From an uncultured delta proteobacterium (lineage in GTDB: Bacteria > Myxococcota > UBA727 > VGSZ01): a stretch of DNA of 64,000 nt. Positions 21,928 to 39,133 of this stretch are shown in pieces. The notes beneath the pieces were generated by a model, which ran no database searches, had not been told where the DNA came from, and saw only the letters and a list, made by a program, of their open reading frames with translations. The stretch covers positions 896,001 through 960,000 of the forward strand of contig CAVZJB010000016.1 in NCBI GenBank assembly GCA_963775425.1, read 5' to 3'. The stretch's first letter is position 1. The number at the start of each line of letters is the position of its first letter. The position numbers and the translations under genes are program-made.

Positions 21928-23254
21928 TCAGTCCGCGAGCCGCTCGATGGGCGGGGGGGACCACCGGCCGTCGAGGACCTCGTCGCGAGGCCAGTACATG
22001 CGCAGCACCACGTTGAACGGGCCCGCCGGCGCCGGCAGCCAATTCGCCTCGCGCGACGCGCCCGGTGAATCGTGCTGGAGCGCCAGGTCGAGCAATCCGT
22101 CTTCGTTCCGGACGAGGGCGTCGCGGTCGCCGAGGACGCAGCGCCCGGCGGCGTTGTCGACGAGGTACTGGCGCTCGTCGTACATCGTGAGCGACCAGAA
22201 CGCGCGCACCGGCGGGGTGCGCCCGGGCGCGAAGTGGACGACGTAGCGGTGGACGCCGTCGAGCGCCCGTCCGTCGGAGTCGACCGCCGCGCGCGCGTAG
22301 ACGGCGTCGGCCGGGAGGTTGGCGCCGAGGCCGAAGCAGGCGACGGCGGCGCGCTTGTCGTAGTCGGTGCCCCAGCGGCCGAGGTCCCTCGCGAGGGACC
22401 AGCCGTTGACCGTTGCGCCGAGCGCCTCCCGCCCGCGGTCGATCCGCTCGAGGGCCTCCGCCACGCCCTCGCCGAGCTCGCCGGCGATCCCCGCAGGCGG
22501 GGCGAAGGATCCCGCGCGCGAGCCCGAGGCGCGCGAAGCGGGCGAGGACGGGCGCGTCCGCCCGCGCCGGCGGGTTCGCGACGAGGAGCGCGGCCAGGCG
22601 CCGGAAGAACGCGAGCGGCTCCATCAGGGCGACCTGCTCGGGCGGCGGGCGCGTGACGTCGACGCCAGGGTCCACAGGCGGCATCTCGTCGCCGCGGCCG
22701 CGGCCGCGCCACGCCGACAGCGGCGCGAGCGCGAGGGCGTCCTGGAAGCGGTGGACGGCGTCGTAGTCGGCCTTGCCGTTGGTCTGCGTGCGGCCGATGA
22801 CCCAGGCCATCGCCGTCGGCGAGCGCAGCACCTCGTCGACGCCGGGCGGCACGGGCCCCGCGAAGTCCGGCGCCACGATCGCGAAGGTGCGCGCCGCCTC
22901 GCCGGTCGTTCGCGTCCCCGGGGACGCGAACACGTCCGTCCAGGCCGACAGGATGGGCATGAGGAAGTAGCGGCCGCGGCTCGGCGGGACGGCGAGGATC
23001 ACGGGCTCGGCCTGCACGTCGAGCCACGCCATCGAGTAGAGCGTGTCCGCGTTCGGGCTCACCACCGACGTGAACGACGCGCCCGGGAACGCTCGCATGT
23101 GGATGAAGCGGTTGGTGCGCGCGCCCCCGAACGGGCCCTCGAGGTTCTGCGTCACGTCGCGCGTGACGTCCATCAGCACGAGCGGGTAGCCGTAGATGAA
23201 GGCGTCGGCCACGAGCTCGACGGTGTCCACGGGGGTGTGCTCGCTCGCGCGCAT
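21928..23254 (-). pseudogene. DUF1254/DUF1214 protein split by a frameshift near 22511 (possibly a sequencing error)
   Basis: AFIYGYPLV...VVSPNADTLYSMAWLD (DUF1254) in one frame; NGWS...GLGANLPADAVY...PPVRAFWSLTMYD...NWLPAPAGPF..LRMYWP (DUF1214) in the adjacent frame. Confidence 0.85.
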
Positions 23255-29160: not shown

Positions 29161-31446
29161 GTGGCGGGCGCGTTCACCATCGCCACCCGTTTGGAGTTCG
29201 TCACCCTCGACGAGCTCGAGGCGGGCTTTGCCGATCGCATCGGCGGCGGCGCGCTCTTTCTCTCGCGCGGCCTCCTGGGCGCCGCCGATGAGCTCTACGT
29301 CGGCGCCTCCGTCCACGTCGAGATAGAGACCGCCCGCGGCGAGCGCGCCCTCACTGTGGACGGCGTCGTCGCCTGGGCGTACCCGGCGCACCCGCGGACG
29401 CCGCCGGGGCGGGAGGCGGGCGCCGGCATCGTCATCGATCGCCACGGCGACGACGAGAGCCGGCGGCGGCTCGAGCGCATGCTGCGCCGGCCGGGCGCCG
29501 GCGGCAGGGTGCGTCCGCCCGGCACGCGCCTGAAGCTCCCCGCCATGGCGCTGCGCGCGCCCACCCCCGCGCCGCGGACGCAGGTCGCGCGGCCGGTCAC
29601 CATCCCGCCGTCGCCGCCCGTCACCACGGACCCGGGGGCCACCGATCCCGCCGCGATCGTCCCGGCGCGCCCGGAGCCGCCTGATGTCGAGCCCGTGAGC
29701 GAGATCCGGGCCGCGCCGCCGCTGCCGGCGACGCTGCTCGAGCCGGGCGGGTTGCCGCCCGCGCCGCAGCCGCGCGTCATGGCGATGCGGATGTTCAACA
29801 TCGAGACCACGCCGCTGCCGGCGCCGGCGCCGCCGCCGCCCCAGGAGGCCGAGCCCCTGCCCTCGGCCCTCGAGGCGCCCGCGCTCTCGGACCTCCCGCC
29901 AGAGCTTCCCCCGGATCTCGCGTCGGACCTCAGGTCGGAGCTGACGTCGGAGCTCACGTCGGACCTCAGGTCGGACCTCAGGTCGGAGCTCGCGTCCGAG
30001 CTCGCGTCGGCGGCGGACGCAGGGCCTGAAGACGCGGGGCCTGAAGAGGCCGCGCCCTCCCGGGTGTCCACCGAGCTCCCCGAGCTCGCCGACGGGCGCC
30101 CCGACGGGCTCCCGGGGGAGCCTGAGGACGAGCTCCCGGCGGCGCACCCCGGCGCGCTCTCGGGCGCGATGCCCTTCGCCGGGCTCCTCGGGCTCGCCCC
30201 GCCGGCCGCCGCCGTGCCCGTCGTGCGCCCGGCCGTCGTCGACCCGCCGCCGCCCGTCGCCGGCCCTGGCGCCGACGACACCCGTGCCGGAGACGGCCCG
30301 CTCGACGCCCCCACCATGGACGGCGGGCCGCAGCTGTCGTCGCTCGACGGGCTGCCCGACGCCGGGGCGATGCCCGGGCCCCACGCACCCGGGGCCTTCG
30401 AGCAGCGGTCCACGGACGTGGACCTCTTGCAGTCCCTCGACGACGCCGACTTCTTCCCGGCCGAGCTCGAGGAGCAACGGGCCCGCCTCGCCCGCGCGTT
30501 GCCGCCGCCGCCGGAGCCGGTGGACAACCCCGCGCTCTCCGAGGAGACGGTGACGTCGTGGAGCCAGCTCGACGACCTCCCGTCCGCCGACGCCGACGTC
30601 GAGCTCATCGGCGACGACGACCCCGCGCCGCCCGTGCTCTCCCGCCCCGAGGGCGTCGACGAGGACACCGCTGTCCACGACACCACCGACGGGGCCAGCC
30701 TGCCGAGCCTCGACCCCCTCGACCTCCGCACCGCCGAGCACGCCGTCGTCGCCCTCAACGACCCGAGCACCGGCGTCGGCGTCGTCGACCACACCACGGC
30801 CGAGTCGGACGGCGTCGAGGGGTTCACCTCCCGCTCGTCGCCGCCGGAGGAGGCGCCGGCGCCGCGGGCGTTGCCCTCGCTCGAGCCGTATGCCCCCGCG
30901 GGCGAGCCCGCCGCCGGCAACATCGGCACCGCGTTCCTCTTCTCCTTCAAGCGCGGGGACGATCCCATCAACGCGGTGGAGGCCTTCGCGTGGCCCAAGC
31001 AGGGCACCAAGCGCTGGAGCGCCATCGACGTCGCCCGCGAGGACGGCAACGAGGCCGCGCTCGACGCCGCCATCGCGTCGAGCCCGTGGCTCGCGCGCGA
31101 CGCCTCCGCGGGATCCTTCGGCTCCTCTCACACGGACCCGGGCGTGCGCGTGCAGGACGTCGTCACCAAGGCGGTCGCCCTGGCCGCGGAGGAGGACGAC
31201 GGCGCCGTGTTCTCCGACACGCCGGTGCGCCCGGCCATGCAGGCGCCGCCGCTCGAGGATGACACGTCGGGGGAGACCACCGTCGACGAGACCTTCGCCG
31301 GCCGCGAGGACCCGCCGCGCGTCATCGACGACGAGGCCGAGACCGACCGCGACATGAAGCGTCCGCCCTCGAAGGCGTCGCCGGAGGCGCGGGCGCGCCT
31401 GAGCGTCCTGCAACGCTTCCTCGGCGGAAACGGCCGCCGCTCGTAG
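29161..31446 (+). CDS. TIGR02266/PilZ-like N-terminal domain plus long acidic Pro-rich disordered region
   Basis: RLEFVTLDELEAGFADRIGGGALFL...GVVAW...GAGIVI resembles the myxobacterial PilZ-like domain; GTG at 29161. Confidence 0.7.
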   Translation: MAGAFTIATRLEFVTLDELEAGFADRIGGGALFLSRGLLGAADELYVGASVHVEIETARGERALTVDGVVAWAYPAHPRTPPGREAGAGIVIDRHGDDESRRRLERMLRRPGAGGRVRPPGTRLKLPAMALRAPTPAPRTQVARPVTIPPSPPVTTDPGATDPAAIVPARPEPPDVEPVSEIRAAPPLPATLLEPGGLPPAPQPRVMAMRMFNIETTPLPAPAPPPPQEAEPLPSALEAPALSDLPPELPPDLASDLRSELTSELTSDLRSDLRSELASELASAADAGPEDAGPEEAAPSRVSTELPELADGRPDGLPGEPEDELPAAHPGALSGAMPFAGLLGLAPPAAAVPVVRPAVVDPPPPVAGPGADDTRAGDGPLDAPTMDGGPQLSSLDGLPDAGAMPGPHAPGAFEQRSTDVDLLQSLDDADFFPAELEEQRARLARALPPPPEPVDNPALSEETVTSWSQLDDLPSADADVELIGDDDPAPPVLSRPEGVDEDTAVHDTTDGASLPSLDPLDLRTAEHAVVALNDPSTGVGVVDHTTAESDGVEGFTSRSSPPEEAPAPRALPSLEPYAPAGEPAAGNIGTAFLFSFKRGDDPINAVEAFAWPKQGTKRWSAIDVAREDGNEAALDAAIASSPWLARDASAGSFGSSHTDPGVRVQDVVTKAVALAAEEDDGAVFSDTPVRPAMQAPPLEDDTSGETTVDETFAGREDPPRVIDDEAETDRDMKRPPSKASPEARARLSVLQRFLGGNGRRS
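29922..30010 (+). repeat. 12-bp coding tandem repeat (SDLR/SELT/SELA)
   Basis: About 7 units of gtcgga(c/g)ct(c/g)(ag/ac/gc); translates as SDLRSELTSELTSDLRSDLRSELASELAS. Confidence 0.8.
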
Positions 31447-31482
31447 GCGCCGGCGGCTCGGTGCCCGCCCTGCGGCTCGACG

Positions 31483-33634
31483 TCAGCCCTCGACCTGCAC
31501 CTTGGTGAAGTCCGCGACGTCGACGAACACGCGCTCGATGCGCGCGAGCAGGCCCAGGCGGGCGTCCCGCAGGGCGACGTCGTCGGTCATGACCATGACG
31601 TCGTCGAAGAACCGATCGACGCGCGGCTTCAAGCTGGCCGCCTCGGCGAGCATGGCGCGCCGCACCTCGAGGTTCAGCTCCCGGCTCTCCCACGGCGCTG
31701 CTCCACCCCTGACCCGGGCGACCTCGCGCGAGAGCTCGAATCTCAGCGGGCTCCGTGAGCGCGCCGTCGACCGTGGCCTGCCCGTCGACGGAGATGCCCT
31801 CGTTGCGCGCCTGCTTGAGGATGTTCCCCACGCGCTTGAAGGTCTTGCACAGCGACGTGAAAGCGTCGGGATCGCGGGCGCGCAGCTCGGCCAACGCGAT
31901 GGCGTTCTCCTCGACGTCGGGCAGGACCTCCACGCCCGCGCGCGACGCCATGGCGGCGTCGACGATGTCGGCGGCGCCGGCGAGCCCGCGCGCCTCGCAG
32001 CGCTCGATGAGCACACCGCGCACGCGCCCGCGCACGAATTCCGCGGCCTGGCGAATGACGGTGACGTCGTCCGCCTTGGGCAGCTTGCCCTGCATGCGGT
32101 ACGCGGTCATCGCCGCCATCGCCAACTCGGGCAGCGGCACCCGCCACGCACGATCCATGAGCACGTGCGACACCGCGATGGCCGCGCGCCGCAACGCGAA
32201 CGGGTCGGCGTTGCCCGTGGGCGCCCGGCCGATGCCGAGGATGCCGACCAGCGTGTCGACGCGGTCGGCGATGCCGACGAGCGCGCCCTCCACCGTGCTC
32301 GGCAGCGCCGCCCCCGCGTGCCGGGGCGCGTAGTGCTCGTCGATGCCGCGGGCGACGTCGCGGTCCTCGCCGTCGCGCAGCGCGTAGGTGCGGCCCATGA
32401 CGCCCTGCAGCTCGGGGAACTCGTTGACGACGCCGCTCGTGAGGTCGGCCTTGCACAACATCGCGGTGCGCCAGGGCGCCTTGGGATCCACGCCGATCCG
32501 CTCGCAGATCTTGGCGGTGATCATCGCGATGCGGTCGGTCTTTTCGCGCAGCGTGCCGAGGTCGCGGTGGAAGACGACGTTCTTTTCGTCGTCGACGCGC
32601 GACGCGAGCGTCCGCTCCAGATCGGTCTTGAAGTAGAAGGCGCCGTCCTCGAAGCGCGCGCGCAAGACGCGGGCGTTGCCGGCGGCGAGCGCGGCCTTGT
32701 CGAGGCTGTCGCTCCCGGCGACGACGACGAAGGCAGGCAGCAGCTTGCCCTCACCGTCGACGACGGCGAAGTACTTCTGATGCTCACGCATCTCGGACAC
32801 GAGCAGCTCGGCGGGCATCTCGAGGAACGCCGCGTCGAAGCGGCCGAGCACGGGGAACGGCTTCTCCACGAGGTTCTTCACGATCTCGAGGAGCTCGTCG
32901 TCGCGCCGGAGCGCGCCGCCGGCGTGGCGGGCCAGCGCCTCGGCGCCCTCGACGATCATCTGCCGGCGCTCGTCGCGCGACAGCACCACCTGTCCGCGCT
33001 CGAGCGCGCGCCGGTATTCGCTCACGCTGCGCACCACCACCGCGGCGGGCGCGTGATACCGATGACCGCGCGTGGTGTCGCCGCTGACGACGTCGGCGAA
33101 GCGCACGGTGAGCGGCTTTTGGCCGTAGAGCGCGAGCAGCCACTGCACCGGGCGCGCGAAGACCTGCTTGTGCGTGGCGCGGGCGTCGCCCCACGACATG
33201 GTCTTCTTGAAGGGGATCTTGCCGATGAGCCCCTCGAGGAGCGCGGGCAGCACGTCCTCGGCGGGCGCGCCCCGCTCGCGCTTCTTGGCGCCGACGACGA
33301 CGCCCTTCTTGGACTCCTTGCGGAACACGTCCTCGCGCCGCAGGTTGTTCTTTCGGAGGAAGCCCTCACCCGCCTGCGTCGGCCGGTCCTCGCCGTCGAA
33401 GGCGATGTGCCACGCGGGTCCGGTGATCTCCTCCTCGAGGTCCGCCTGCATCTGCGCGACGTCGCCGACGATGACGCACAACCGGCGCGGCGTCCCCTCC
33501 GCGACGACGTTGCCGTGTGGCAGGCGAGCCGCCGTGAGCGCCTCGTCGACGGCGGCGCCGAAGAAAGCCAGCGCCGGATCGATGAAGCCCGCGGGGAGCT
33601 CCTCCGTGCCGATCTCGAAGAGCAGCTCAGGCAT
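31483..33634 (-). CDS. glyS: Glycine--tRNA ligase beta subunit (apparent +1 frameshift at ~31740)
   Basis: [50 protein letters not shown]; C-terminal RFFDDVMVM...RLGLL lies in the next frame. Confidence 0.95.
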
Positions 33635-34838
33635 GCCCCACCTCCTTCGACGTGAGCGCCACCTCGCCCGACAGCGCCCCGGGGAGCGGGATGGCCTCGG
33701 CGGGCAACAGCGGCGCGAACAACGCGCGGTCCTCGGGCGAGAGCATCGGGAACCCGCGCTGCGCGCGGCTCGCCAGATATCCCTCGGCGCAGCCGCGCGC
33801 GAGGGTGCGGATGCGGCCGATGTACGCGGCGCGCTCCGTTTGGCTGACGACGCCACGCGCCTGGAGCACGTTGAACGTGTGCGAGCACTTGAGCACGTGC
33901 TCGTACGCGGGGAGCACGAGGCCTGCCTCGAGCAGCCGCTGCGCCTCCCCCTCGAATTGGCCGAACTGCTCGAGCAGCACGGCGACGTCGGCCTGCTTGA
34001 AGTTGTAGTGGGACCACTCCCACTCGTCCTGCTTGTGCACGTCGCCGTACGTGATCTTCTGGCCGCTCGGGAGCACGGCCCACACGAGGTCGTACATGTT
34101 CTCGACGTCCTGGAGGTACATCGCCAGCCGCTCGAGGCCGTACGTCAGCTCGCAAGAGACGCGCGGCAGCTCGATGCCGCCGCACTGCTGGAAGTACGTG
34201 AACTGCGTGACCTCCATGCCCTGCGCCCAGACCTCCCAGCCGAGGCCGGCGGCGCCGAGCGCCGGGTGCTCCCAGTCGTCCTCGACGAAGCGCACGTCGA
34301 ACGTGGCCGGGTCGATGCCGAGCGCGCGCAGCGAGTCGAGGTACTGCTCCTGCACGTCCTTGGGCGACGGCTTCAGGATGACCTGGAACTGGTAGTAGTG
34401 CTGGCTGCGGTTGGGGTTGTCGCCGTAGCGGCCGTCGGTGGGCCGGCGCGAGGGCTCGACGTACGCGACGTTCCACGGCTCGGGCCCGAGCACCCGCAGG
34501 AACGTGTGCTTGTTGAGCGTGCCCGCGCCCACCTCGACGGAGCTCGGCTGCACCACCAGGCATCCCCGGTCGGCCCAGAACCGCTGCAGGCGCAGGATGA
34601 CCTCCTGGAACGTGGACGCCTTCGGCCACGCCCTCGACGTCGACACGGTCATCACCGGCGGCAGCCCGTCGCCTATCCGCATCGTCCCGGCGCGCTTCTT
34701 CTTCGCCGGCGCCTTCCTCGCGGCCTTCTTCTTCGCGGGCTTCTTCTTCGCGGGCGCCTTCTTCGCGGGCGCCTTCTTCGCGGGCGCCTTCTTCGCGGGC
34801 GCCTTCTTCGCGGGCTTCTTCTTCGATCGCTTCGGCAC
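33627..34838 (-). CDS. glyQ: Glycine--tRNA ligase alpha subunit with histone-like N-terminal extension
   Basis: [62 protein letters not shown]; its stop overlaps the glyS start. Confidence 0.97.
34696..34823 (-). repeat. 15-bp tandem repeat encoding PAKKA-type Lys-rich pentapeptides
   Basis: cttcttcgcgggcgc units on the + strand; translates as [43 protein letters not shown]. Confidence 0.92.
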
Positions 34839-34841
34839 CGG

Positions 34842-35228
34842 TTACCTCTTGGCGGCGATGACTTCGACCTCGACCTTCACGTCGCGCGGCAGGCGGGCGG
34901 CCTGCACCGTCGAGCGCGCCGGCGGATCGGAGGTGAAGCGCTTTCCGTAGATCTCGTTCACCTTCTGGAAGTCGCCCATGTCCGCCAGGAAGATCGTGGT
35001 CTTGACGATGTCGGCGAAGCTGCAGCCGGCGGCGGCGAGCACCGCCTCGACGTTGTCGAGCACGCGCGCGGTCTGCGCCTCGACGCCGCCCTCGACGATG
35101 GCGCCGCTTTGGGGGTCGAGCGCGATCTGCCCGGAGCAGAACACGAGCTCCCGGGGGGCGACCGCGATGGCCTGGGAGTAGGGGCCGATGGCCTTCGGTG
35201 CCTTGTCCGTCGAGATGACGCGCTTCAT
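34842..35228 (-). CDS. ridA: RidA (YjgF/YER057c/UK114) reactive intermediate deaminase
   Basis: APKAIGPYSQA, SGQIALDP, VKTTIFL, PPARSTVQAARLP, VEVEVIA. Confidence 0.95.
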   Translation of the reverse strand: MKRVISTDKAPKAIGPYSQAIAVAPRELVFCSGQIALDPQSGAIVEGGVEAQTARVLDNVEAVLAAAGCSFADIVKTTIFLADMGDFQKVNEIYGKRFTSDPPARSTVQAARLPRDVKVEVEVIAAKR

Positions 35229-35230
35229 CA

Positions 35231-35258
35231 AAGAGCCCTCCGGTGAAGGAGGGCTCTT
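35231..35258 (-). promoter_or_regulatory. Hairpin sequestering the ridA Shine-Dalgarno sequence
   Basis: Minus strand AAGAGCCCTCC-TTCACC-GGAGGGCTCTT-TG-ATG: a perfect 11-bp stem whose 3' arm holds GGAGG, 8 nt before the ATG. Confidence 0.65.
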
Positions 35259-35471
35259 CGTCGAAAATGCCCCGTGGGGCAACACCGTCGACTCAAAAGG
35301 GCGACGAGCAATGTGATCCATCGGCAACGCGCACGGGACCGGCGCCGGGAGGAGCCGCACCGTCGATGCGGCGCGTTCGCGCCCGGGCCCGCGTTGAGCC
35401 GGGCAGTCCATTCGCGACGTCGGCGACGTCGACGACCCTGCGGGGCTTGACGTCGGCTGCGTCGACGCCCC

Positions 35472-35553
35472 GTAGGGCGGGGGCTTGTCCCCCGCGTCGG
35501 AAGGCACGCGGACGTGCCGGTGCCTCCGACGCGCCCCACAAGGGGGGCCCTAC
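35472..35553. repeat. GTAG-family REP pair forming a REPIN-like long hairpin
   Basis: GTAG-GGCGGGGG-CTTGT-CCCCCGC ... inverted partner CCCCACAAGGGGGGCCCTAC; inner stem GCGTCGGA-AGGCAC/GTGCC-TCCGACGC. Confidence 0.75.
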
Positions 35554-35990
35554 GCCTCGATGCCGTGCGTGCCGTGTCGACGTGTGCGGCGACGACGGCG
35601 CCGGCCGTCGCCCCGACGCGACAACGGCAGGGCAAGACGTCGTCGTCAGCGACGAACGCCCTGCCGCCGTGAATGTCGTGACGCCGCTGAGCGCAAAGGG
35701 CGACGAGCAATGTGATCCATCGGCAACGCGCACCGGACTGCCGGCTCGGACGCGAGGGGCGGCGGGCGGCGCCGGGAGGAGCCGCACCGTCGATGCGGCG
35801 CGTTCGCGCCCGGGCCCTTGTTCACCCGCGAATCCCGCGGAGAGGGCGCGGACGTGCCGTGTCGACGCGTGCGGCGACGACGGCGACGACCGTCGCCCCG
35901 ATGCGAGAAAGGCGCCGAAGGCGCGCGGCGTAGACATTCGCGGCGGGGCACGACGTCATCGTCAGCGCACACGTCGTCCCGCCGAGAATG

Positions 35991-36041
35991 TCGTCACGCC
36001 GCTAAGCTCGTCACGCCGCTAAGCTCGTGACGCCGCTGAGC
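35991..36041. repeat. 17-bp direct repeat x3 (fourth copy at 35676-35692)
   Basis: TCGTCACGCCGCTAAGC twice, then TCGTGACGCCGCTGAGC. Confidence 0.92.
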
Positions 36042-36281
36042 GCAGCCTCGCGGCGGTTGTCCGCGCGCCGCAGCAATCCCCGGCGTTCCACCGTTCCACC
36101 CCGAACCGCTGCCGGCGCTGTCCGCAGCGTCAAGACGCGCCCGCCCCGTGGCACGCAGCTTGAGTCTCTGCGCCGCACGCTACGCAACCCCGAACCAGCG
36201 AGCACCGCCGTGACCAGCACCGTCGCCACCCGTCGTCACCCGGCCCCCACCGCCGCCACGCCCGAAGCGCACGACACGCGC

Positions 36282-36809
36282 ATGACCATGGCCGACGGCT
36301 CCGTCGGCGGCGTCGAAGAGATGTCCTTCGGCGATCCCGCCTCGTACGCGCGTTGGCGGTGCGCCCCCATCACCCCGCCGGCGTCGCCCCCCCTCATCGA
36401 CGACAAGAAGGCCGCCGATCCCGACGGCGCCCGCGCGGAGAATGAGCGCCGGGTCGCCGCGTACTTCAAAAAGTACGGCGCGTACGCCGAGCGGTTCGGC
36501 GACGCCGCGCGCGACCCTTTGGTGAGCGACGACACCCTGCGGAGCTGCCCGCCGCTCGCGCGGCCCGCCGCGGCTGCGTCGCTGCCCGAGGACGAGCGTG
36601 CACACTACGAGACCATGGCCCCGGCCTCGGTCATGCGGAAATACCGCGAGGCCGGCGACGCGCTCGGCGACCGCACTCTCGACGCGCAGCTCGCGTCCAC
36701 CGGGTACGTCAAGGCCGCGCTCACCGGCCCGGGCTTCTACGGGTCGTCGACGGCGGAGCGCGACGACCCCTCACAGATCGCGGCGCGCCGCGTGGGCGGA
36801 GGCCGCTGA
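36282..36809 (+). CDS. Hypothetical protein
   Basis: Non-overlapping ORF with GC-rich third positions and mixed amino-acid composition from ATG 36282; no motif recognised. Confidence 0.6.
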   Translation: MTMADGSVGGVEEMSFGDPASYARWRCAPITPPASPPLIDDKKAADPDGARAENERRVAAYFKKYGAYAERFGDAARDPLVSDDTLRSCPPLARPAAAASLPEDERAHYETMAPASVMRKYREAGDALGDRTLDAQLASTGYVKAALTGPGFYGSSTAERDDPSQIAARRVGGGR

Positions 36810-36814
36810 ACGAG

Positions 36815-36858
36815 ATCCGGGGCCGCCGCCCTTCTTGGCGGTGGGGCGGCGGCCGGAT
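36815..36858. terminator. GC-rich hairpin between convergent genes
   Basis: GGCCGCCGCCC (36821-36831) / GGGCGGCGGCC (36844-36854); no clear U-tract. Confidence 0.45.
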
Positions 36859-36942
36859 GCGTGGTGGTTGGAACGAGGCCCTCCGGGTGTCCCGCGGACA
36901 AACGCGGGCGCCCGGGGGGCCCCGGGCCCATCGCGGGGCTGC

Positions 36943-39133
36943 TCAGCCGTCCTGGGAGCGGGCGCGCTCCACCGCGTGGACGCCCTTGACGCCCTCGAGC
37001 GCCTTCACGATCTTTCGGAGCTGCTCGAGGTCGATGATGCCGCACTTGAAGGTGTTCACGGCCTGGCCCTCGCGGAGCACCTTGCAGTTGGCCTCGCTGA
37101 TGTTGACGCTGTTCTTGGAGAACACGCCGGAGAGATCGGCGAGCATGCCCTCGCGGTCGTCGGTGACGACGCGCAGGGAGATGGGCCGCGCGAAGGTGGT
37201 GGCCGAGTCCCACGACACCTGGATGCGGCGCTCCGGGTCGAGCTCGAGGACCTTGGGGCAGTCCTTGCGGTGAACCGTGAGGCCGCGGCCGCGGGTGACG
37301 AAGCCGACGATGGGGTCGCCCTTCACCGGGGAGCAGCAGCGCGCGTAGTGCACGAGCATGTCCTCGATGCCTTCGATCTTCACGCCGCTGGCGTTCCTGC
37401 GCGCGACACGGTCGATGAGCTCGGAGAGGCGCGACTTGCGCGGCGCCGGCTCCGGCGGCTTGCTGCGCACCTCCTCGGGGAGCACACGCTCGACGACGAG
37501 CTGCGGCGCGAGCTTGCCGTAGCCGACGGCGACGAGGAGGTCCTCGAGGTCGCGGTACTTCTCGCTCTTGAACAGGTCGAGGAGCTTGTCGTTCAGGTGC
37601 TTTTGAACGCTGGCCCCGAACCGCCGCAGCTCGCGCTCGAGGAGCTCGCGGCCGATGGCCACGGCGCGATCGCGCTCCGCCGCCCGCAGGTGCGCGCGGA
37701 TCTTGGTCTTGGCCCGCGACGTCTTGACGAACTCGATCCAGTCCTTGTTCGGGCGCTGCGACTTGCTCGTGATGATCTCGCAGGTGTCGCCGTTCCTGAG
37801 CGCGTAGCGGAGGGGGACGATGCGCCCGTTCACCTTGGCCCCGGCGCAGTGCATGCCGACGTCGCTGTGGATGGCGAAGGCGAAGTCCACGGGAGAGCTG
37901 CCACGCGGCAGCTCGATGACGTGGCCCTTGGGCGTGAAGATGTAGACCTCGTCGGCGAAGAGGTCGAACTTCACGGAGTCGAGGAACTCGGTGGGGTCCT
38001 TGAGATCGCGCTGCCAGTCCATGAGCTGGCGCAGCCACTGAAAGCCGCCCTCGCCCGAGATCTTCACCGGCAGCGACGCGCCCGTCTCCTTGTACTTCCA
38101 GTGCGCCGCGATGCCTTCCTCGGCGATCTGCTGCATCTCTTCCGTGCGGATCTGGATCTCGATGCGCTCGGCCTTGGGCCCGATGACGGTGGTGTGCAGC
38201 GACTTGTAGCCGTTGGGCTTCGGCATCGCGATGTAGTCCTTGAAGCGCCCGGGGATGGGGCGCCAAAGACCGTGGATGTGCCCGAGGGACTCGTAGCACT
38301 GGCCGACGTTGTCGACGATGACGCGGAACGCGATGAGGTCGTAGACCTCCTCGAAGGGGATGTTCTTGGCCGCCATCTTCTTGTGGATGCTCCACAAGTG
38401 CTTGGGGCGGCCGCTGACCTCGAAGCCGGAGAGGCCCGCCTTGGTGAGGACGTCGCTGATCTCACCGGTGACGTCGTCGATGAAGCGCTGGCGGTCTTTC
38501 TTGGTGCGGCCGAGCTTCTCGCTGAGCTCTTCGTACTCCCGCGGGTGCATGTACTTGAAGCTCAGGTCCTCGAGCTCGAATCTTGATCCATGAGATGCCG
38601 AGCCGGTTCGCGAGCGGCGCGTAGATCTCCATGGTCTCGCGCGCGATGGCTTCCTGGCGGTCGGGCTTCATGTGCTCGAGCGTCCGCATGTTGTGGAGGC
38701 GGTCCGCCAACTTCACGAGGAGCACGCGGATGTCCCGCGCCATGGCGACGAGCATCTTGCGGAAGTTCTCTGCGAGCTTCTCCTCGGCGTTGTTGAACTT
38801 GACCTGGCCGAGCTTGGTGACGCCGTCGACGATGCCGGCGATGTCCTTGCCGAACAGCTCCTCGATCTCTTCGATGGTTGCGAGCGTGTCCTCGACGGTG
38901 TCGTGCAGGAGGCCGGCGACGACGCTGGCCTCGTCGAGCTTGAGCTGCGCGAGGACGCCGGCGACGGCGAGCGGGTGGATCAAGTACGGCTCGCCGGTCT
39001 TTCGCACCTGCCCGGCGTGCACCTTGGCGCAGTAGACGTATGCCTTCTTGATGAGGTCGACGTCCGCCCGCGGGTGATAGCTGGTCACCGCGTCAAGGAT
39101 GTCGTTCAGGCGCAATGTCTGCGGAGCGTTCAC
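36943..39133 (-). CDS. rel: Bifunctional (p)ppGpp synthetase/hydrolase Rel/SpoT (apparent +1 frameshift at ~38580)
   Basis: GEPYLIHP, LLHDTVEDT, KLADRLHNMRT, YAPLANRLG in one frame; ELEDLSF, GRPKH, RFKDYIAMPKPNGYKSLHT, EIQIRT, AAHWKYK, TGS and ACT domains in the next. Confidence 0.96.

Follow-up and report, generated by a model that had tools for sequence, protein, structure and literature searches.

About 750 nucleotides (nt) of DNA upstream of ridA, glyQ, and glyS in an uncultured delta proteobacterium (Myxococcota) are very probably a cluster of dispersed hairpin repeat modules of the repetitive extragenic palindrome (REP) and bacterial interspersed mosaic element (BIME) type, and not an RNA leader specific to those genes. 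The window analyzed here is a 64,000-nt stretch corresponding to C16:896001-960000 (contig CAVZJB010000016.1 of assembly GCA_963775425.1) in a genome of 8.26 Mb with 72% G+C in 18 contigs; positions given without a contig label are those of the window. An initial annotation of this DNA had proposed that a tandem structured element at 35231-36044 was either a riboswitch or attenuator for a ridA-glyQS operon or an undescribed structured repeat or miniature inverted-repeat transposable element (MITE) family. The repeat nature of the stretch, the order of its modules, the GTAG heads of its palindromes, the placement of its copies at gene ends, the link to a transposase gene, and its absence in relatives are established by the observations that follow.

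Results

The stretch upstream of ridA is a mosaic of modules dispersed throughout the genome

Comparison of the 814-nt stretch with its own genome by blastn yielded 339 high-scoring segment pairs (HSPs; E <= 1e-3). The initial annotation had itself held that many copies at unrelated loci would mark a dispersed repeat, and this genome-wide result speaks against its leader claim. Coverage per 10-nt bin, with the locus itself excluded, was 0 over 35231-35290, next to ridA, and 4-9 over 35296-35400, where two blocks described earlier as 39 and 50 nt long are found. It then rose to 34-43 over 35411-35450 and peaked at 139-163 over 35471-35500, the core of a palindrome designated REP1; values of 27.9-49.4 and 28-43 were obtained over 35501-35690 and 35861-36000, respectively.

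Repeat comparison resolved two head-to-tail units upstream of ridA, unit A (35296-35694) and unit B (35695-36044), both described on the plus strand. The pair of units and their ordered shared blocks, with exact runs of 39 and about 51 nt, are as the initial annotation had reported. Block 1 (35296-35344 and 35695-35743) is shared at 94% over 49 nt, the first 39 of which are exact, and block 2 (35340-35401 and 35767-35828) at 94% over 62 nt, including the exact run of about 51 nt. Block 3 (35568-35628 and 35853-35913; 61 nt, 90%), block 4 (35625-35651 and 35941-35967; 27 nt, 89%), and block 5 (35656-35692 and 35971-36007; 37 nt, 84%) complete the set, and block 5 is followed in unit B by two further repeats at 17-nt spacing, to 36041.

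The units can be read as strings of modules, all on the plus strand except where noted. M1, the 39-nt block (35296-35334), has 8 genome copies, and M2, the 50-nt block that had been called branched (35340-35392), has 9 by blastn-short. M3 (35401-35470; 20 copies) is the GACGTCG-rich 5' flank of REP1 and has a 33-nt internal period. REP1 itself (35472-35495; 228 copies) comprises a GTAG head (35472-35475), a 7-bp stem, a 5-nt loop, and the return stem, and is followed by a central hairpin between inverted REPs (35496-35530), a DNA fold with no assigned strand whose exact variant occurs in 5 copies. The inverted partner, REP1c, occupies 35531-35553 on the minus strand with its GTAG at 35553-35550, and 23 copies were counted from blastn-short matches. 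M5 (35561-35620; 15 copies) is a linker with its own GC-rich hairpin and a second instance at 35853-35913. REP2 is complete in unit B (35930-35991), where GTAG (35930-35933) precedes a palindrome of about 58 nt, and 57 HSPs place it at 56 loci; the unit A copy (35621-35680) is reduced to the inner hairpin, with neither the outer left arm nor the GTAG head, and when aligned with full copies shows a gap of about 31 nt. M7, the end module, is present once in unit A (35664-35694) and as three 17-nt tandem copies in unit B (35992-36044), with 36 copies in the genome.

Unit B is thus the plain string M1-linker-M2-M5-REP2-M7, with a linker of 33 nt, and copies at C9:210036, C8:179119, and C8:136121 share its M1-linker-M2-M5 junctions. 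In unit A, M3 and the REP1 dimer are nested within this string, between M2 and M5, and REP2 has lost part of its sequence, giving the order M1, M2, M3, REP1, central hairpin, REP1c, M5, 5'-truncated REP2, and M7. The stem pairs that the initial annotation quoted for the last-but-one block are present in the sequence, and what it described as a stem that differs between the units yet stays paired is explained by the deletion in the REP2 copy of unit A, not by compensatory evolution. M1 usually runs on from the M7 of the preceding REP2, an M7-M1 junction being visible in at least 7 rows of the REP2 alignment, so the unit boundary drawn earlier is one of several ways to cut the chain. The DNA fold of 35401-35700 had a z score of -4.16.

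Copies elsewhere reproduce much of this architecture. With 35381-35720 as query, 40 HSPs of at least 100 nt were found, a count that includes the query itself and unit B. Near-full copies of 35400-35695 were located at C8:121813-122089 (89%), C12:206161-206483 (85%), C16:1182396-1182669 (82%), and C17:67431-67721 (81%), and the modules of unit A are collinear with all four. The module matches together formed 152 clusters, and 17 contigs were represented among the 45 clusters listed. In the multimodule clusters listed, the order was M1-M2-M3-REP1-REP1c-M5-REP2-M7 in one relative orientation with modules variably present, and junctions were common to several loci; REPs combined in this ordered but variable way with a small set of linkers are what characterizes a BIME. 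Genome copies of M2 were 91-100% identical over 40-63 nt, leaving nearly no variation for structure testing. Arrays of six to eight tandem REP1 copies, some with alternating orientation, together with a six-repeat array of the 33-nt M3 period, were also seen at C8:146558-146962, C17:407075-407470, C18:266975-267511, and C11:150007-150321; by crude gene calls the M3 array lies mostly within an open reading frame (ORF).

REP1 and REP2 are high-copy, GTAG-headed palindromes

Allowing up to 4 mismatches, REP1 was found 228 times (57 exact and 67 one-mismatch copies), compared with 0 matches in a reversed-genome control. Across 232 aligned matches, the GTAG columns were 77-90% conserved and the stem columns 88-98%, and 1508 of 1596 stem cells were Watson-Crick pairs; G-T pairs outnumbered A-C pairs 19 to 7. 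In REP1c the G and C of the inner stem are swapped, and the GTAG ends of a REP1-REP1c pair face outward. A collinear REP1 lies 30-43 nt from 17 of the 23 REP1c copies, and the resulting dimer is predicted to fold as a junction of local hairpins and not as one long hairpin. Adjacent REP1 pairs within 100 nt were more often head-to-tail (46) than inverted (27). The REP1c of the window carries a 1-nt deletion, and a fuzzy search started from it returned 5 matches versus 1 in the control.

GTAG also precedes the REP2 palindrome in the consensus of the 56 loci and in the majority of their full-length rows. In 49 of the 56 copies, 918 of 1233 stem cells were Watson-Crick pairs, and double changes amounted to 15 cells in 9 pairs; the five slid controls gave between 1 and 14 such cells. 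G-T (71) and A-C (74) mismatches were about equally frequent, so that no RNA strand is favored. Both REP1 and REP2 are therefore dispersed, high-copy palindromes headed by GTAG, as REPs are.

A transposase gene flanked by REP1

Matches to Pfam Y1_Tnp and to NCBIfam REP_Tyr_transpos were each found at three places in the genome. One gene on C18 (L001:1423-1938, C18 ~22725-23240, 172 aa) scored 91.5 bits on NF047646 REP_Tyr_transpos and was the only one above the cut-off of 80; the best solved relative of its product is E. coli TnpA-REP (4er8; E 2.4e-9). Inverted REP1 copies at C18:22653-22676 (+) and 23205-23228 (-) bracket this gene, and its reading frame runs into the flanking copy, an arrangement that matches the REPtron, in which a cognate transposase gene is flanked by inverted REPs. 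The M3-REP1 sequence of the window matches the flank of the C18 gene at 89% over 47 nt (L001 1903-1957) and that of a second, truncated gene on C3 at 94% over 47 nt (L002 2033-2090).

A further protein of about 320 aa on C11 (L003:1456-2409) has a Y1-like N-terminal domain without HUH and a long C-terminal part that weakly resembles the DnaA C terminus. Matches to its family model, below the cut-off, were found in 11 of the 12 relatives searched, and the protein resembles a domesticated relative more than a transposase.

Repeat copies lie outside genes and often end at stop codons

Gene contexts were taken from a home-made caller based on G+C content at third codon positions (GC3), which gave 6082 genes, 88% coding, with approximate starts. 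REP1 copies (n=228) were found in convergent (84), tandem (78), and divergent (29) spacers, within genes (33), and at contig edges (4), against a background of 897 convergent, 2592 tandem, and 939 divergent spacers. Nongenic positions accounted for 195 of the 228, compared with 665 of 5000 random 24-mers (4335 of which were genic). Clusters containing modules other than REP1 (n=55) lay in convergent (32), tandem (18), and divergent (4) spacers and, in 1 case, within a gene. Extragenic placement in convergent and codirectional spacers, as expected of REPs, was thus found. The M7 end of the repeats faced the 3' end of a gene in 31 of 36 copies, and three of the five exceptions were the window's own copies. 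M7 was at most 15 nt from the stop codon in 17 of the 36, and the stop was TGA in 16 of these 17. In 8 copies the stop abutted or overlapped the blast-defined M7 end (offset <=0), seven with TGA and one with TAG; examples of M7 ends are C16:1182666, C17:67721, C9:160286, and C5:699290. The position of M7 on stops suggests either a TGA-adjacent target or selection for hairpins at gene ends.

The second of these options leads to the alternative that survives best, which is compatible with a REP origin and which we consider possible yet doubtful: the REP2-M7 and REP1 hairpins may be kept by the host because, as RNA, they end or stabilize transcripts. In this case, the window cluster would be a 3' element of the upstream minus-strand gene, either relA or a gene since lost, and would shield ridA from read-through. 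The M7 ends that face stop codons, and those within 15 nt of one, speak for such a role, as does the enrichment of REP1 and of mosaic clusters in convergent spacers. The GTAG strand of REP1 in tandem spacers was the gene strand in 51 of 78 cases, its stems hold more G-T than A-C, and the window cluster is oriented as the end element of a minus-strand gene. The text of one study of GTAG-tagged REPs (Di Nocera, De Gregorio & Rocco 2013, PMC3733652) also places many REPs downstream of coding regions and allows that they may act as RNA. However, the hairpins are not followed by a U-tract, the strand asymmetry is absent from REP2, and the same placement would also result if purifying selection removed insertions from genes and promoters.

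The cluster is lineage specific at the ridA locus

All three genes that the initial annotation had named next to the element were identified by Pfam matches. The gene ridA (34842-35228, -; RidA/L-PSP family, PF01042, E 1.3e-42) has its ATG at 35228-35226; glyQ (33627-34838, -; PF02091, E 1.9e-138) starts 3 nt past the ridA stop, and glyS (31322-33634, -; PF02092, E 8.7e-178) has an approximate start from the GC3-based gene call. Because their spacing is 3 nt or overlapping, the three form one operon. On the side of the cluster away from ridA lies an orphan ORF X (36210-36809, +) with a coding-like GC3 of ~0.9, for which neither a Pfam family nor a match among 30 relatives was found, followed by a relA/spoT-type gene (36943-38667, -; PF04607, with TGS and ACT domains) that is 81% identical to the relatives' gene. 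As a separate matter, the N terminus of GlyQ carries a 70-aa Lys/Ala/Pro repeat extension that is histone-H1-like (34629-34838, -; GC3 0.97), and the DNA of relatives is likewise repetitive at this point, with long open frames.

The gene glyQ was present in 15 of 15 genomes, and ridA was directly upstream in 10 of 13 relatives' loci. Three genomes of one related genus (g3) carry relA, a gene of 211 aa (geneZ), ridA, glyQ, and glyS on one strand, with a gap of about 95-115 nt between geneZ and ridA. A query from the relatives did not find geneZ in window positions 35229-36945 (tblastn, best E 0.77) or in the whole genome, and in its place are the opposite-strand ORF X and the repeat cluster. 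The 399-nt unit matched 62 places in its own genome; among 30 relatives, matches were confined to 10, spanned no more than 65 nt (E 6.6e-7 or weaker), and in no case lay at ridA. Since the region upstream of ridA in relatives is short, different, and without the unit, the cluster is, by these comparisons, lineage specific at ridA-glyQ-glyS. From its position where relatives have geneZ, the cluster most likely entered with or accompanied the replacement of that segment.

A more particular history can be drawn from these data, which we regard as speculative and rather improbable. Here, REP2-M7 would be a mobile hairpin placed next to TGA by a Y1-type transposase, its surviving copies sitting exactly on stop codons and supplying genes with 3' hairpins, and the window cluster would be the former end of the gene that relatives have between relA and ridA, having become part of the 5' leader of ridA-glyQS after that gene was lost.

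REP1 is also found well beyond this genome. The exact 31-nt REP1 pattern had 0 loci in public genome contigs, and the 24-nt pattern, with one degenerate loop base, matched exactly at no fewer than 112 loci in public genomes. Among the loci listed, a tally by hand of record labels, a few of which are odd and may belong to misbinned contigs, gave 68 Myxococcota-type, 16 Chloroflexota, 8 Acidobacteriota, 7 Methylomirabilia, 4 Planctomycetota, 2 Armatimonadota, 1 Poribacteria, and 6 others. Comparison of the window stretch with the public REP1 loci listed gave 165 HSPs, 0 of them outside REP1 and its immediate flanks. An identical REP1 24-mer under at least seven phylum labels, if these are taken at face value, would mean, on a second and equally speculative reading, that a REP1-transposase pair moves between phyla, contrary to the view of vertical inheritance for such pairs.

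Structures next to ridA and searches for a leader RNA

Between the cluster and ridA lies a unique 5' region (35229-35295, -) that contains, as the initial annotation had noted for the minus strand, a small hairpin (35269-35280) followed by AUUUU and a hairpin that sequesters the Shine-Dalgarno (SD) sequence (35231-35258). The latter has 11-13 bp, and its 3' arm holds the SD sequence GGAGGG. The RNA fold of the 67-nt region was -40.7 kcal/mol compared with -26.0 +/- 3.35 for 200 shuffles, none of which folded as well (z = -4.39). The small hairpin with its four U residues fell below the criteria of the terminator scan, and for the 67-nt region we found neither a second copy in the genome nor a counterpart upstream of the relatives' ridA. 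The predicted SD hairpin is the only ridA-specific structure, and it could limit translation initiation, acting as a translational brake or a thermosensor.

A search of 34000-37500 with Rfam cmscan (E <= 1) detected no T-box or glycine riboswitch family, in agreement with what had been reported from inspection of the sequence. Three matches with E values of 0.56-0.78 were far below their gathering scores: Atu_Ti1 (24.8 bits versus 55), suhB/mmgR (20.3 versus 41), and PhotoRC-I (16.2 versus 45). Covariation over the REP2 stems was not above slid controls, and M2 was nearly invariant. The idea of a tandem riboswitch or attenuator for ridA-glyQS is therefore not supported, given blocks dispersed over the genome, no Rfam family, absence from the relatives' operon, and no covariation. 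The other reading offered, a structured repeat or MITE family, was right as to a repeat family; its kind, however, is not an undescribed one, as the features are those of GTAG-tagged REPs and BIMEs.

A weaker version, in which a repeat-derived cluster has been co-opted and is transcribed as a long structured 5' leader that modulates ridA-glyQ-glyS together with the hairpin-U4 and SD hairpins, seems to us quite unlikely. The cluster does lie directly upstream of ridA in a sense orientation for read-in, the three genes are packed as one operon, the proximal 67 nt fold well and bury the SD sequence, and no promoter-like site was detected between cluster and ridA. The last of these carries little weight, since the scan for sigma-70-like promoters over 35150-36350, which found 0 sites, also found 0 in shuffles and is powerless at 72% G+C. 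Against a co-opted leader, the same modules occur in 55 clusters, 50 of them behind genes, there is no counterpart in relatives sharing the operon, and the Rfam search (E <= 1) gave no family match, T-box and glycine riboswitch included. REP2 double changes were also not above slid controls, with G-T equal to A-C, and the 91-100% identity of M2 copies indicates recent copying rather than conservation.

Discussion

A model for the origin of the cluster can be put forward by analogy with TnpA-REP and the IS200/IS605 family. The GTAG palindromes would fold as hairpins in single-stranded DNA, and a REP-associated HUH/Y1 transposase would cut and rejoin these hairpins, allowing them to spread. Local duplication and recombination may then have enlarged the clusters, the 17-nt triplication at 35992-36044 being a possible example, and copies would be left at gene ends by purifying selection, by a target preference near TGA, or by both. 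The window cluster is oriented as if it were an element downstream of a minus-strand gene to its right, and probably came before or together with the loss of geneZ. The transcription start of ridA-glyQS is probably located close to the cluster's proximal edge or at that edge itself, and any effect of the repeats on these genes would be a by-product.

The REP/BIME interpretation should be weighed against several points that tell against it or limit its reach. The longest cluster was 748 nt, and because the modules were defined from this window, the ranking of its own cluster as the largest is biased; the gene contexts likewise depend on a caller with approximate starts, and the promoter scan was uninformative. 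The window cluster is one of the 4 of 55 that lie in a divergent spacer, ahead of genes, and a local regulatory effect is possible given this position. E. coli BIMEs bind integration host factor (IHF), DNA gyrase, and Pol I. M1, M2, and M5 lack a GTAG head and are tied to the transposase by co-occurrence only. Probes from flanking genes for empty sites (C17:67267-67721 and C16:1182399-1182666; 11 relatives) had best matches of 34-42% identity, with no clear orthologues and hence no readable empty site. Moreover, the C18 protein keeps the HUH motif (HVH) and has Cys at the position of the catalytic Tyr (Tyr115 of E. coli TnpA-REP), where the homologue of one relative (G008) has Tyr, and the second transposase copy is incomplete, matching model positions 12-118 of 146 at 47.4 bits. 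An intact HUH with a catalytic Tyr, needed for present mobility and not for REP membership, was therefore not found; with Cys in the only transposase above the cut-off the REP population may no longer be mobile, although in a genome that is 94.55% complete a further transposase copy could be unassembled.

That the units are a MITE of a DDE-type insertion sequence with no relation to the Y1 transposase is highly improbable, in spite of a unit length of 300-400 nt and noncoding, dispersed copies: the unit ends lack terminal inverted repeats (the one long inverted pair, 73% complementary, is internal), 10 aligned copies show no visible direct target duplications at their ends, no cluster exceeds 748 nt and hence no parent element with these ends is seen, the modules occur in many partial combinations and not as one unit, and the GTAG heads and REP-flanked Y1 transposase fit the REP model. 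A CRISPR array, an integron attC array, and group II intron fragments were also set aside, as there were no regular spacers, cassette ORFs, or Rfam match, with no dedicated test made for any of them.

Among known systems, the closest are the GTAG-tagged REPs, described in the text of PMC3733652 as forming head-head and tail-tail dimers, lying between unidirectional and convergent ORFs, and accompanied by GTAG-flanked genes for REP-associated tyrosine transposases (RAYTs). The repeats described here share with that account a short GC-rich stem-loop with an unpaired GTAG at one end, copy numbers in the hundreds, several classes per genome, head-out dimers 20-100 nt apart, subfamilies with alternative complementary stem bases, a convergent or unidirectional intergenic location, and repeat-flanked RAYT genes. 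They differ from it in the REP2 stem-loop, which is about 58 nt here compared with stems of 6-13 bp in the text of PMC3733652, and in the REP1 partner, which has a G/C-swapped inner stem and gives a dimer that is a junction of local hairpins.

E. coli offers a second comparison, with its REPs, BIMEs, and REPtron and with the cleavage and recombination carried out by TnpA-REP in vitro, as treated in the text of Ton-Hoang et al. (2012, PMC3333891). Mosaics of REPs and recurrent linkers and a Y1/HUH transposase gene between inverted REPs are common to both. Compared with the E. coli BIMEs of that text, however, the modules here are longer and more numerous, being of seven kinds in units of 300-400 nt, they have no sequence similarity to the E. 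coli motifs, and the transposase has Cys at the catalytic Tyr position. Pseudomonas REPINs, as outlined in the text of Bertels & Rainey (2011, PMC3116915), resemble the REP1 dimers in having two inverted REPs with a short spacer and one or few RAYT genes, but only about 17 dimers were found among 228 REP1 copies, and many copies lie within larger mosaics. As to the REPIN hallmark of inverted REPs that form one long hairpin and replicate together, 17 of 23 REP1c copies were paired with a REP1, but the partner's stem is G/C-swapped and most REP1 copies lie outside dimers. Like the T-box and glycine riboswitch leaders found at glycyl-tRNA synthetase genes, the cluster is rich in secondary structure and precedes a glyQS operon; unlike them, it has no Rfam match at E <= 1, is not conserved with the operon, and has copies at unrelated loci. 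In sum, the cluster has the GTAG-REP and BIME features that were tested and none of the tested features of a riboswitch or leader.

The repeats depart from the described cases in the long REP2, the stem-swapped dimer partner, the number of linker modules, and the Cys in the transposase. No description of REP families in Myxococcota was found in the literature searched, and the text of PMC3733652 names no Myxococcota, while its figures and supplements may list related consensus sequences.

This analysis documents REP/BIME-type mosaics together with a transposase gene in an uncultured Myxococcota-like genome. A striking tandem element ahead of an aminoacyl-tRNA synthetase operon is accounted for as selfish or structural repeat DNA, which removes a false riboswitch lead, and for annotation, the modules should be masked before this genome is searched for regulatory RNAs. 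Finally, the ends that coincide with TGA, the Cys-bearing transposase, and a 24-mer found in metagenome-assembled genomes of several phyla could help to test how such elements select their sites and whether they pass from one phylum to another.

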